A stretch of 64,000 nucleotides of DNA from assembly GCA_903873945.1 (NCBI GenBank), contig CAIQQM010000246.1:8940-72939 (forward strand). Reading direction: 5' to 3'. The notes under the pieces are model-generated. The model saw nothing but the letters and a program-made list of their open reading frames with translations. It was not told the DNA's origin and searched no databases. This DNA is from an uncultured Verrucomicrobiota bacterium (GTDB lineage: Bacteria; Verrucomicrobiota; Verrucomicrobiia; Limisphaerales; UBA8199). Both the position numbers and the translations under genes were made by a program. Of the stretch, positions 1,566 through 13,497 are shown one piece after another. The first letter of the stretch is position 1, and every line of letters starts with the position of its first letter.

Positions 1566-4500
1566 TCACGGCGCCAATTGCACGCGGTAGTAGCCTTGCG
1601 GCTGGCCAACGCGAACGGAGTTTGTGTCGCTGAATGAGGTCAGAGTGCCGATGCTTTGGTTGGTGCTGATGGTGGTCCAACTGGAGGCGCCGAGCGTGGG
1701 CCCGTAGAGCACGGTGTAGGTCCGGGAAGGCAGGCTCGTCCAGCTCAAGTTCAAGGTGGCAGGAATTGCGTCCTCGGAAGCGATGGGAACGAACTGGTCA
1801 GTCGAGACATCGAGAATGCCATATTCTCCTGTTGGCTGTGTGCTCGAGGTATCCATGTAAGTGGTGTTTGTGGCGCTGCTGGTGACCAGGTCGAGGAAGT
1901 ACCACGCGGGCGCGTTAGTGGTCGCTTTCCAGAGCACGATATAGTCTTTGCCGGCCACGCTGGCCCAGGCAATCTGAACACCGCCCGGCGTATGGGTCAC
2001 GCCGGTTATGATTGGCTGGACATTGGTGGCGACCGTCTGCACGACATACGAGTACGTGGTGCCTGGCGCGCCCGCAGGAGTGGTAGCAGTAAGGCCCAAA
2101 CTGTCGCTGGCCGCCAGGTAATAGGAGACTGTGGCGCCCGAGGGCTGCGCAGCAATCTGGCCGCCGTAGATGCCATCCCCTGCGGCGCCGTCCTGGTGCA
2201 AACCATCGTCGAACAGTGTGACGTTAGTCCAACCGCCGCCCGTGTTGCAGTTAAGCATGAGTTGCCGCGTGCTGCTGACATTGTCCGTAAGCTGGGCCGT
2301 GACCCAGACGGCATCAGCCGAGGTGGGTGAAACGGGCGTCTGGGTTATTGCGGCAATAACGGGGGTGTTCCACGCCGTGGGATCCAGGCCCCATTGGTAG
2401 CACTGGATATCGGTCAAACCGTCGCCGTTATGATCGCTGGTGGCGGTGACGGCGGAGAGGGTGCCGAAGTGGGCGCGGACCCAGATGTCAGGCAAGCCAA
2501 GGCCGACGCTATCGGTGGCAGCGCCGGTGTAGGTTTCAACCGTGCCGCGCGGGGTCAGATCTTTGCCTGTGAAGCCGACGAAGTTGGTCGGGTAGCGGTG
2601 GACTTTGAAAACTTCATTGTACCATTGCCCGGCCATGTTCGGATCGGGCGGGATGGCGGAGCCTTGGGCCAGCGGCGTGGAGGTTTCGGGGTTGATATAA
2701 GACCAGACTGTCGTGCCGTTGGTGGTGACCTCAAAGAGCGTGCCGTGTGTGCCGTGGGTAATGAGCGTGTTGCCGTTCGCCTCGCGTTCGGCGCCGCCGA
2801 TGTCGGAACAGTAAAAGTTGGTCGCGGGATTATTTGTGTAGGTCCAGTAAAGATTCGCCGGGCCAAAGGCGGCACCGGTCGTGCGCGAGTAATTACCGTA
2901 AGCGTCCACCGGCGGGACGATCTCGTCCACGGAGGTATAGCCGCGTCCGCCATTACCATTGTTGAAGATGAGGATGTGACCGGCTCCGGGGTAGTTGGCG
3001 GGAATCCAGATACAGCAATGCTGCTGCCAGAGAATTTCGTTGGCTTGCGTGCCGAGTTTGTATTGCTGGGGGTTGCCCCAACGGTAGAGCAGGTCGCCAC
3101 CTTTACCGTAGCTTCCACCGGTATGACCGGCGGCCTGGGCGGTGGTGGTGCTGTGATCAATGACCCAGATTTCGCTGTTGCAGCGGCAACTGATCAGGAT
3201 CTGGTCAAACTGCGGGTTGTAGTCAATCCCGTTGAAATGGTTCCAGAATTGCTGGTTTTGTCCGCTCGGGGGATTGGCATTGATGAGGCCGACGTTGTTG
3301 CTGACGACACCGTAGTTGTGCTTGGTCGAATCGTAATCCTGGATGAGGTGGTCCCACGAATGCCATTCCCAGACGATGTTGCCGCCGTAGGGCCGGGTGG
3401 GTTGGACTTCGGCAATGTAGTCGGGGAGCATGAACCCGCCGTTGGCGGTGATCGCGGACACGCAGAGGTTGGTGTTGAATCCTGCGGCGATGACATCGGC
3501 CAGCGATTTATATTCGCAGACGATCATAATCAGATTGCCGTTGGGGAGAACCTTGAAATCGTGGTGGCTCATGTTGGTGCTGGTGTTCAGGTCGAAGGCC
3601 CAGACGAGGTTGCCTTCCCAGTCACGTTCCTCATGGCGACCGCCTTCGCCGCCCCCGGTGGAAAGAATCGTTCGCACGGAGCATTCGCGGAAGTAGTGGC
3701 CGTTCGTCATTAGGTAGTCTCCGCGGCCTGGACAATACTGGCTCGTCCATTTGTGGACATACTGGCCGGCGTTGTTGAGCAGGTAGGCATTAGTGCCCTG
3801 CATCGGGGACATCAGCGTGTAGCCGGGGCAGGCATTGGTGGCGTTGAGGAACAAGCCGACGGTTTGCGTGAGTTTCTCCGGGCGCATGACGCGGAACCCG
3901 ACTTGGAACCAGGCGGTGTCGGCGTTGCCGTCGGGCGGGGTCCCTAGCGACCAGGACGGGTCGCGGTTGGAGACCCGGCTGTAACCGTAGAACTGCTGGC
4001 CGCCGCCATTGAACCAGGTGCCGCCACGCAGACCGCGGTAGGCCATGTTGCCATAGTCGGTGAAGATGTCGCCGGTAACCGGGCCGGGCGGGTTGGTGAC
4101 GATGTTGTTGTTGGTGCAGTAAGCGTAGTAGGCACTCGCATACCAGTCGTTGACCCACTCCCAGACGTTGCCGGCCATGTCGTAGAGGCCGAATGGATTG
4201 GAGCCGTCGCTGGTCTGGTAGGTGGTCTGGCTGCCGGGCCAGTTGTAATTGGTCGCATACCGGAGCGCGCCGTTGTAGAACCCAACCGGCGTCGTGTTAG
4301 GATAGTCGTTGGTAGATTCAAATGGATCGCCGGAGCCCTGCCAATTCGCGTAGGTGCCGTCGGCATTGCTGTTGGTGCCCCAGGGGAACATGCAGTAGGG
4401 ATTGGTCAACCCGCCGTGCGCGCAATATTCCCACTCAGCTTCGGTCGGCAAACGGAAGCCGTTATTGGTAAAATTGACATCGCCCGTGGCCAGATTATAG

Positions 4501-11988: not shown

Positions 11989-13497
11989 TTACGGTGAATG
12001 ATACGACGGCGTCCGGCCCGTGATGGTACTCCCTGAGGTCAAGGTGTGGCCGGTCAGAGCCGGATCGTTTGTGCCGATGCGGAAAGCCCGGAAAATGGAG
12101 TTGTACATCGGCCAGTTGTCATACTTGAGTTTTACGATGCCATCCGAGGCCACCGGGTTGATGTATTCCCACACCGCGTCGCCGGCGGGCGAGACTTCAA
12201 TGACGTGTCCCTCCGTATCGGAGCAGATGAAAGTGTTCCCATTCGGCAGCCGCTGAACACTGCCGCCGATGTGGCTGGTCATGCCGTGGCTGGCTTTGGG
12301 CTGGTAGCTCCAGACGATTTGTTTCGACATCGCCTTGGGATTCAGGCCGGTGTTGGCCACGGGCGGCTGCCAGGTGTTATACCCGGCGTCCGGGGGATTC
12401 ACGTAGGCCGCCGTGTCATTCGTCAGCGCATTCAGATAGGGGTCGATTTCAAACGCGTAAGAGTCCTGGGTATGCTCGAATAAATTCTGGGCGTTGTTGA
12501 AGATGAGAAAGTGGCCGGCACCCGAAAGCCCCGCCGGAATCCAGCTTATGTGATGCGCGCCGCCGATCTGCTTGTTGCCAGTGGTGGATTCCGTCCAGTT
12601 GGTGAGGATCGAGGGCGGGCTGCCCTGGTTGTAGCGGGCCGGATCGCCGAACCGATAGAGGAAATCCCCGGCGGCGCTGGCCGCCAGCGCGATGCTGTTG
12701 GAGAGGTTGCCAGCGATGAAGGTGTTGCCGTGGTCGATGATGTAGAATTCGCCCCGCACCGAGTTGACGGCGATTTGGTCCAGCGCCTGGTTGTAATCAA
12801 TCCCGTTGCAGTGCAGCCAGTCACTCTGCACCGGCATGCCGGTGATGTTGGCATTGAGCCGGCCGGGATAGTTGGAGATGCTCATGCCCGTGCCGACGTA
12901 GTTGGTCTTGGTCGCGTCGTAGTCCTGAATCAAGTGATTATAAAACCACCACTCCCAGACGACGTTGCCGGACATGTCCACCTCCACCAGCGCGTCCATC
13001 TGGGCAGTGTTATAATTCTGCCCGTTGGCGGGATTGCACCCGGCGGCGATGCACTGGTTGGAACTGACCGATTTGTTGGCGATGTAGAGTGTCGTGTAGG
13101 CGTTCAGCTTCGGGTTGAACATGCGCAGGAAGTCATGGTGCGGCGCGTAGTTGGTGCGCGTCTCGAGGTAGGACCAGACGTTTGACCCGTTCCAGTCCAC
13201 CTCCACGAAGCCGGGGAATCCACTGGGGTCGTTGTTGGAGGCATCGAGCACGTTGCCATTGGTAAGCAGATGCGGATTCGTCCCGACCGGCCAGGTATGT
13301 GCCACGTGACCCTCCATATCGATCAGGTACGTCGTGCCACGCACGCCAAACCAAGTGTAGCCGCTGTAGGTGTTCGTTTTATCCCAATACAGCAACTCGG
13401 TCGGCCCTTGCAGTGCTTCGTAGGCGTGAAGGGAAGTGGCCGTCAAAAAGGCCAGCAGCCCAAGCCGGAAACCGGTCAACAGCGCTTTTGTCATCAT
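11989..13497 (-). CDS. 502-aa secreted ASST-like beta-propeller protein (single domain)
   Basis: Signal MMTKALLTGFRLGLLAFLTATSLHA. The N-terminal ~110 aa are near-collinear with the 1322-aa paralog (YEALQGPTELLYWDKTNTYSGYTWFGVRGTTYLIDMEGHVAHTWPVGTNPHLLTNGNVLDA). Also HHDFLRMFNP, VVWEWWFYNHLIQDYD, DWLHCNGIDYNQALDQIAVNSVRGEFYIIDH, GDFLYRFGDPARY. Confidence 0.8.
   Translation of the reverse strand: MMTKALLTGFRLGLLAFLTATSLHAYEALQGPTELLYWDKTNTYSGYTWFGVRGTTYLIDMEGHVAHTWPVGTNPHLLTNGNVLDASNNDPSGFPGFVEVDWNGSNVWSYLETRTNYAPHHDFLRMFNPKLNAYTTLYIANKSVSSNQCIAAGCNPANGQNYNTAQMDALVEVDMSGNVVWEWWFYNHLIQDYDATKTNYVGTGMSISNYPGRLNANITGMPVQSDWLHCNGIDYNQALDQIAVNSVRGEFYIIDHGNTFIAGNLSNSIALAASAAGDFLYRFGDPARYNQGSPPSILTNWTESTTGNKQIGGAHHISWIPAGLSGAGHFLIFNNAQNLFEHTQDSYAFEIDPYLNALTNDTAAYVNPPDAGYNTWQPPVANTGLNPKAMSKQIVWSYQPKASHGMTSHIGGSVQRLPNGNTFICSDTEGHVIEVSPAGDAVWEYINPVASDGIVKLKYDNWPMYNSIFRAFRIGTNDPALTGHTLTSGSTITGRTPSYHSP

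Follow-up and report, generated by a model that had tools for sequence, protein, structure and literature searches.

The stretch of DNA analyzed here (hereafter the window) comprises 64,000 nt of contig CAIQQM010000246.1 from an uncultured Verrucomicrobiota bacterium. Four consecutive genes on its minus strand, between positions 1566 and 13497, encode proteins built around the same type of beta-propeller, and these four genes are genuine but distant relatives of those for bacterial aryl-sulfate sulfotransferases (ASSTs; EC 2.8.2.22). The explanation that we favor, and that we hold to be probable with some reserve, is that the propellers belong to an old, horizontally widespread cassette of secreted enzymes, in which three of them would carry out group transfer through a covalent histidine intermediate and the remaining one would be non-catalytic. 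The assignment to the family is in itself ordinary; the new elements are the conserved pair of an active and a dead propeller and the multi-enzyme cassette in which the pair is found.

The four genes are designated here by letters: A (502 aa; 11989–13497), B (1322 aa; 7984–11952), C (766 aa; 5630–7930) and D (1314 aa; 1566–5510). Their open reading frames match exactly the coordinates given in an earlier note on this DNA, with intergenic gaps of 36 nt between A and B, 53 nt between B and C and 119 nt between C and D. The common propeller core that the note had described is seen in all four translations and comprises about 470 aa. Upon aligning the cores with MAFFT, A and B are 66% identical, C and D 52%, and identities between the two pairs range from 35 to 41%. 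The blocks reported as common to the cores (HHD, W.H.IQDY, H.N..YN..DQI, IDH, GD.LYR.G.P and NGNT.I) are present with small deviations from the patterns of the note: D has AYLL for TYLI, C has I for V/A before H.W, A has Y for W/F, and the last block reads NGNTFI in A and NSNTLI in C. Repeats were also found at the DNA level. The cores of A and B are 75–76% identical, the tails of B and C 74–77%, and a module that is N-terminal in D and central in B 72–79%; these repeats confirm paralogy and show sharing or exchange of modules among the copies.

A consists of a signal peptide and a single six-bladed ASST-like propeller without any decoration. In B, the propeller (10453–11886) is followed by immunoglobulin (Ig)-like/choice-of-anchor-X segments, a jelly-roll (9469–9981), a PKD domain, two InlB-B repeats, another PKD domain and a TSP3-like repeat with a C-terminal tail. 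The propeller of C (6491–7858) is followed by a PKD domain (6044–6280) and then by a TSP3-like repeat and C-terminal tail. D begins with a jelly-roll (4917–5426) and a domain resembling the formylglycine-generating enzyme (FGE) without the FGE cysteines (3876–4901); its propeller (2478–3875) comes next, and a choice-of-anchor-X segment and C-terminal beta domains close the protein. The decorations listed previously were all recovered (none in A, two PKD and two InlB-B domains in B, a PKD domain in C and the FGE-like domain in D), and three further modules can be added to that list: the 170-aa jelly-roll common to B and D, the choice-of-anchor X Ig-like segments of B and D, and the common C-terminal TSP3-like repeat with a beta-sandwich tail ending in ..YR.. 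The AF2 model of the jelly-roll (pLDDT 82.6) shows a fold like that of the carbohydrate-binding modules (CBMs) of families CBM4, CBM22 and CBM16 and of gingipain adhesin domains. Inspection of the translations revealed in A–D a hydrophobic N-terminal signal peptide with an A-x-A-like site at its end, and all four propeller proteins are predicted to be exported. Signal peptides in all four, together with sorting domains of the type IX secretion system (T9SS) on their Bacteroidota homologues, support the previous description of these proteins as extracellular.

Membership in the ASST/Arylsulfotran family was borne out by searches with hidden Markov models (HMMs). The PF05935 model is passed by all four copies (A 48.1, B 36.1, C 68.9 and D 63.9 bits; cut-off 24.2), and PF14269 by A, B and C (33.8, 29.3 and 29.6 bits; cut-off 27), D scoring below it with 23.7 bits. 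When a profile of the clade to which the four proteins belong (102 sequences) was aligned by HHalign with a set of 16 canonical ASSTs, a probability of 98.5% and an E-value of 1.9e-15 were obtained over 349 columns; a small profile reaches the E. coli enzyme (EcASST), whose sequence was taken from a RefSeq genome, at an E-value of 3e-4. The AF2 model of A (pLDDT 88.7) was compared with the PDB by means of Foldseek. Top matches were the structures of Cpz4 (9kf6/9kf4; E 2.6e-15, template modelling (TM) score 0.51–0.56), EcASST came next (E 1e-12, TM about 0.45), and generic propellers followed far behind. Both HMM and fold comparison assign the propeller to no other family. The name aryl-sulfate sulfotransferase that clade proteins bear at NCBI rests on homology only.

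EcASST is sulfurylated on His436, and His252, His356, Asn358, Arg374 and Thr501, which line the site, are conserved in the known enzymes of this type (PMC13426309). The earlier note had left the fate of the sulfohistidine and its partners to an alignment with EcASST. Profile–profile alignment places His252 at H121 of A, His356 at H229, Asn358 at N231 and His436 at H315. The equivalents of these four residues are found in A, C and D; those of Arg374 and Thr501 are not kept. A first hhalign run against the single EcASST sequence had placed His436 at H316; this assignment was dropped, as the family-versus-family alignment and the conservation data give H315. When conservation was counted over 123 clade representatives clustered at 50% identity, H121 was present in 117, H229 in 114, N231 in 120 and H315 in 115. 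Equivalents of H121, H229 and N231 occur in all four copies of the window. The catalytic-type set is complete in A, with H315 encoded at 12553–12555; the putative nucleophile is H305 in C (7016–7018) and H831 in D (3018–3020), and its position is taken in B by Ser311 (11020–11022). Further evidence comes from giant proteins among the representatives (P0121–P0127; 1,000–3,500 aa), with two to four ASST-like propellers. In their second propellers, H121, H229 and H315 are lost jointly, and H120, H188, H256, R282 and R416 stay. This joint loss is independent of the alignment with EcASST and argues that the three histidines form one functional unit.

A-, B- and C/D-type copies were compared over 26 distinct related loci. 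The full catalytic set is present in all 25 A-type and all 19 C/D-type propellers and in none of the 26 B-types. At position 315, B-types have serine (17 cases), glycine (6), cysteine (2) or histidine (1), and this change is often accompanied by H121G, H229D and N231V/T. B keeps the clade-specific histidines and arginines. The description of all four proteins as having the same core therefore fails in the functional sense for B, in which absence of the nucleophile is a conserved trait of its orthologous group. Across loci, B-types are conserved to 54–84% and A-types to 56–85%; since both are about equally conserved, B appears to be maintained rather than decaying. Moreover, the B-type is always encoded next to an intact A-type. 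On these grounds, B looks like a conserved pseudo-enzyme partner, that is, a paralogue maintained in a catalytically degenerate state, and its simplest reading would be that of a substrate-binding or scaffolding partner of A. B-types resemble in this respect the pseudo-enzyme partners of active paralogues: they have no nucleophile, adjoin intact A-types and are equally conserved. The A–B partnership would be a physical one only by analogy, and EcASST homodimerises via a domain that the clade lacks.

The four genes had been taken for a lineage-specific expansion. The comparison of loci contradicts this: the A, B and C/D types are orthologous groups of old standing, and their gene order is preserved across at least six phyla. 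The order A-type, B-type, accessory modules and C/D-type is identical in the 26 loci and recurs in Verrucomicrobiota, Kiritimatiellales, Lentisphaerae, Phycisphaerae, Acidobacteriota and Bacteroidota. Relatives of A with 55–91% identity were found in metagenome-assembled genomes (MAGs) of Verrucomicrobia subdivision 3 (the closest), Kiritimatiellales, Lentisphaerae and Phycisphaerae, as well as of Holophagaceae and other Acidobacteriota and of Bacteroidota; more distant ones occur in Flavobacteriales and in one Nitrosopumilus MAG. The Flavobacteriales locus (L049) has housekeeping neighbors only and is uninformative. The clade is large, with 11,929 clusters at 50% identity having E-values below 1e-3, and 1,979 below 1e-30, and reads with the gene come from lake water, freshwater sediment, peat and soil. 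Only C looks lineage-specific from such comparisons: the two closest loci (L010 and L011) have no such gene between B and D, and the metagenome scan gave no relative of it above 50% identity, its neighbor D being 52% identical.

In a peat Bacteroidota MAG (L028, 2708–18996), the cassette as a whole separates argG from argH. This arrangement resembles that of an inserted island and agrees with a horizontal spread of the cassette. The gene order in that locus is LTXXQ, Metallophos, ASST-A, a gene of no assigned type, Lcl_C plus FGE, and ASST-C/D, and four of the six products (Metallophos, ASST-A, Lcl_C plus FGE and ASST-C/D) bear a T9SS sorting domain.

The cassette of the window is also larger than the stretch from 1566 to 13497 to which the unit had been confined, and includes a PEBP gene, a gene for an SMP-30/gluconolactonase-like (SGL) protein and two metallophosphoesterase genes. 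The SGL gene (445–1545, minus strand) starts 20 nt downstream of D and encodes a six-bladed propeller (PF08450, 141 bits) with a C-terminal tail of the same type as in the other cassette proteins; elsewhere, SGL is fused to the propellers, as in proteins of 1217 aa (L003) and 2532 aa (L007). Upstream of A lies the PEBP gene (14021–16228, minus strand; probable start ATG at 16183), whose exported product of 735 aa has a helical LTXXQ-like N-terminal part and a C-terminal PEBP domain of YbhB/YbcL type. Across the related loci, A is nearly always preceded by an exported protein of 550–750 aa with such a PEBP domain or an LTXXQ-like helical region. The two metallophosphoesterase genes (23528–25213 and 25229–26902, minus strand) encode proteins like PhoD and purple acid phosphatases (PAPs). 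The window Metallophos protein gave no match in the PDB or NCBIfam. Taking into account that full-length queries cross-match the common C-terminal tails, only the catalytic domains were used to search for orthologues; orthologous Metallophos/PhoD domains were found inside the cassette in 19 related loci, several of them within the propeller polypeptide. One open frame of L012, at least 3349 aa long, combines ASST, two Metallophos/PhoD, two Lcl_C, FGE and SGL domains. Modules that recur downstream are the 170-aa jelly-roll, Lcl_C domains, the FGE-like domain and the SMP-30/gluconolactonase-like propeller.

The FGE-like domain of D matches PF03781 with 125.6 bits and FGE structures of the PDB at E-values of about 1e-17; PorK and SUMF2 were also matched, and the best NCBIfam match is GldK. 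The HMMER alignments to FGE stop short of the cysteine-pair region, which we take to be the site of the copper-binding cysteine pair of FGE, after the RGGS motif. In D, the segment RGLRGGTWFNGGGQQFYGYSRVSNRD...FRVMRP has no cysteine, and residues from about 480 to 545, after the RGG motif, are cysteine-free. FGE catalysis was rejected for D on account of the absent pair. In contrast to the formylglycine-generating enzyme, and like the non-catalytic FGE-fold modules PorK/GldK and SUMF2/pFGE that it matches, the domain looks like a binding or scaffold module.

B (7987–8367), C (5633–6043), D (1569–2075), SGL (448–680) and Metallophos have a common C-terminal beta domain that ends in ..(F/Y)YR.. 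and often comes after a TSP3-like DPDGDG repeat; Bacteroidota homologues have a T9SS Por_Secre_tail at the same place. This domain may be the counterpart, in the Planctomycetes–Verrucomicrobia–Chlamydiae (PVC) group, of a sorting or anchoring signal, unrecognized in Verrucomicrobiota. Between 30695 and 37273, also on the minus strand, two large secreted proteins are encoded. One of them (1146 aa) has an EF-hand, right-handed beta-helix/PMP repeats and a metallo-beta-lactamase fold; the other (1033 aa) has PKD, two Lcl_C and Metallophos domains, and a tail 55% identical to that of C. Both may belong to the same regulon or system.

The 119-nt gap between C and D had been reported to contain a motif (site A), and control by a sigma factor of the extracytoplasmic function (ECF) type had been put forward. 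Both claims stand. The motif CCGTTTAACCCCTTGG occurs four times in the window, 0.39 occurrences being expected, and no shuffle reached four occurrences of the 16-mer. ECF-type −35/−10 motifs precede D, the PEBP gene, the HlyD gene and the Metallophos genes, and the motif stands at the same position in related MAGs. Upstream of D, the promoter-like motif reads TGTAGGAA-N15-CGTTTAACCCCTTGG (5536–5573, minus strand), and upstream of the PEBP gene TGTCGGAG-N15-CGTTTAACCCCTTGG (16250–16287, minus strand), the latter being likely the promoter for PEBP, the receiver described below, A, B and C. A third site (27159–27196) precedes the Metallophos pair, and the consensus of the three is TGT(A/C)G(G/A)A(A/G)-N15-CGTTTAACC(C/T)CTTGG. 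A weaker copy with three mismatches (19636–19651, minus strand) is located upstream of the HlyD/ABC/MacB exporter genes (16332–19608). Among related loci, the motif precedes the PEBP gene in L011 and the A gene in L012. This distribution suggests three transcription units, corresponding to the exporter genes, to PEBP-receiver-A-B-C and to D-SGL. Scanning for sigma-70 promoters and for terminators yielded no signal beyond chance.

Candidate regulators are encoded on the plus strand, divergently from the exporter and the cassette: an ECF sigma factor (19751–20401) and a Ser/Thr kinase with tetratricopeptide (TPR) repeats (20307–23141). Such a pair flanks the cassette in L003, L007, L011, L013, L014 and L036, and other loci have a two-component system. 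A second, paralogous pair of ECF sigma factor and Ser/Thr kinase (27288–30693, plus strand) is divergent from the Metallophos genes. Because nearly identical motifs, GTAGAAAG-N14-CGTTTTAACCAT, which are close variants of the promoter motif described above, stand before the two sigma genes, the two factors are not distinguishable as to the operons that they serve. A stand-alone response-regulator receiver (13520–14002, minus strand; PF00072, 73.9 bits) is encoded between the PEBP gene and A. It has no output domain and its position is not conserved, receiver genes lying upstream and on the opposite strand in related loci.

Two other regions of the window were noted. At 39738–41843, a gene with a pterin-binding domain adjoins one for an EgtD-like histidine-specific methyltransferase (PF10017), with no evident link to the cassette. 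The region 54000–60000 has a low GC content (0.49–0.51 versus about 0.59) and includes an IS1-like transposase fragment (55766–56593) and a gene for a P63C-domain protein (56587–57705); it is probably a mobile-element remnant.

The favored explanation can be set out as follows. The cassette is built in a fixed order, in which a regulator (ECF sigma factor with Ser/Thr kinase, or two-component system) comes first and the PEBP/LTXXQ protein second; the minimal propeller A is next and then B, with its degenerate site and binding modules, before lectin-type modules (jelly-roll/CBM-like, Lcl_C and FGE-like). These may be followed by PhoD/PAP-like metallophosphoesterases and the SMP-30-like hydrolase, and an intact propeller of C/D type comes last. 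A, C and D would perform ping-pong group transfer, or hydrolysis, via a covalent histidine intermediate at H315, H305 and H831, respectively. As their substrates, sulfate esters of extracellular phenolic or glycosidic organic matter would be most likely; 3′-phosphoadenosine-5′-phosphosulfate (PAPS) is unavailable outside the cell. B would bind or present the substrate, and the phosphoesterases and the lactonase-like enzyme would act on other types of ester in the same material. As a whole, the cassette would serve to mineralise or remodel the sulfur and phosphorus that are ester-bound in humic organic matter of lakes, peat or soil. The transferred group would most likely be sulfuryl, since all characterized relatives transfer it and ASST-type chemistry needs no extracellular nucleotide cofactor.

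Comparison with the two solved relatives shows both the basis and the weak points of this proposal. Like E. coli CFT073 AssT (PDB 3ELQ/3ETS; PF17425 plus PF05935), the clade proteins are exported six-bladed propellers, with about 350 homologous columns and with equivalents of His252, His356, Asn358 and the sulfurylated His436 in A, C and D. They differ from it in that the window genes have no adjacent dsbL/dsbI and form part of a multi-paralogue cassette with a dead partner. The best structural match, Cpz4 of caprazamycin biosynthesis (PDB 9KF4/9KF6; Arylsulfotran_2 type), is, like the clade core, a propeller of about 470 aa without N-terminal domain, and has in common with the clade the W..H motif at the position of H188 and the LPNGN block; the PF14269 model is passed by A, B and C, as given above. 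In contrast to the clade proteins, Cpz4 is a cytoplasmic tailoring enzyme of an actinomycete antibiotic cluster, with 15% identity and a leucine at the position of the invariant R416. The literature search yielded no paper on the Cpz4 structure.

Several observations weigh against the favored explanation. Similarity to characterized ASSTs is low (12–13% identity and a TM score of about 0.45 for EcASST; 12–15% and about 0.45–0.56 over both), and single-sequence phmmer searches of the PDB with A and with the C core gave no ASST match, only profiles reaching the family. The PF17425 domain, an N-terminal beta-sandwich that mediates homodimerisation and is present in all but one of 120 listed canonical ASSTs, has no match in any of the four proteins. 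Profile–profile alignment puts V247 and G411 of A in the places of Arg374 and Thr501, both positions being variable across the clade, and the equivalence of H315 and His436 requires a one-residue gap. The near-invariant clade residues H120, H188, D255-H256, R282 and R416 are absent from canonical ASSTs. The tight linkage to phosphoesterase and PEBP genes points to phosphate at least as much as to sulfate. Finally, no RNA runs containing the gene were found, and the literature search yielded no paper on the clade or the cassette. Given the clade-specific residues, the ligand of the pocket could be a metal or another anion; R282 and R416, which are invariant, might also substitute for Arg374 and Thr501.

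Taking these points into account, phosphoryl chemistry is a serious alternative, because Arg374 and Thr501 are missing, extra arginines and histidines are present and the linkage to Metallophos and PEBP is strong; we nevertheless consider it unlikely. Architecture and covalent histidine would be the same, and the propellers would be phospho-histidine phosphatases or phosphotransferases acting, e.g., on aryl or inositol phosphates, for extracellular phosphorus acquisition alongside the PhoD/PAP-like enzymes. Lakes and peat are often phosphorus-limited, and the PEBP fold, which has an anion/phosphoryl-binding pocket, is found in the first gene of the cassette. Metallophos/PhoD domains orthologous to 23528–26902 lie inside the cassette in the 19 loci mentioned, several in the same polypeptide, and the window Metallophos genes carry the common promoter motif. 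Two invariant arginines and three extra histidines, instead of Arg374 and Thr501, would suit a more highly charged ligand. On the other hand, all characterized members of the superfamily (EcASST, DhAST, Cpz4 and BvAST) transfer sulfuryl groups, no Pho-type regulator or Pho box was identified, and guilt by association would look alike whether the enzymes share one activity or act side by side on a common substrate. According to a less probable reading, ASST chemistry would have been abandoned, and the histidine, aspartate and arginine set of the clade would constitute a metal site, for which the six conserved histidines were considered, or a lyase/hydrolase site acting on a polymer, e.g., a polysaccharide, or the propellers would be mainly binding or adhesion domains. 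H120, H188, D255-H256, R282 and R416 are indeed stricter than the ASST trio and retained in copies without it, lectin/CBM-like decorations (jelly-roll, Lcl_C, FGE-like, PKD) are many, and one related locus lies beside genes of glycoside hydrolase families GH2, GH78 and GH92. But the trio is kept in 93–98% of representatives, and its joint loss, confined to a defined paralogue class, argues that it is the catalytic unit; the nearest folds are the two solved sulfotransferases, not lyases or metallo-propellers, and the Bacteroidota loci examined have no context of polysaccharide-utilization type (SusC/D).

The interpretation of the earlier note, i.e., a lineage-specific tandem expansion of ordinary extracellular ASSTs diversified by accessory modules, now appears very improbable. 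It accounts for four paralogous and adjacent cores, for tails and modules exchanged among B, C and D at 72–79% nucleotide identity and for a C protein without close counterpart elsewhere. It is contradicted by the conservation of types and order across at least six phyla, and it fits neither the consistent difference between A and B at the catalytic position nor the missing canonical ASST features (PF17425, Arg374, Thr501). More tentatively, a reading that we find doubtful is that bacteria of freshwater, peat and soil possess in this cassette an unrecognized and widespread extracellular machine of many enzymes, whose ASST-like propellers have a chemistry new to the superfamily. ASST-like propellers, an obligatory dead partner, PhoD/PAP-like phosphoesterases, an SMP-30-like hydrolase and lectin modules would be its components, sometimes within one polypeptide of more than 3,300 aa. 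Such chemistry might be, for example, the release of phosphate from aryl or inositol phosphates via phospho-histidine, or processive removal of esters from polymeric humic or cell-wall material.

Studies of PAPS-independent sulfotransferases cover only about a dozen enzymes, of which nearly all belong to gut bacteria or pathogens, and what these enzymes do in nature is still unclear (PMC13426309). The clade described here is large, environmental and uncharacterized. The 502-aa A-type protein offers a simple biochemical entry point to it, and possibly a new biocatalyst scaffold. The constant association of one intact with one degenerate propeller, together with the fusions to phosphoesterases, a lactonase-like enzyme and binding modules, provides testable hypotheses, which bear on how bacteria may attack the ester-bound sulfur and phosphorus of humic organic matter.

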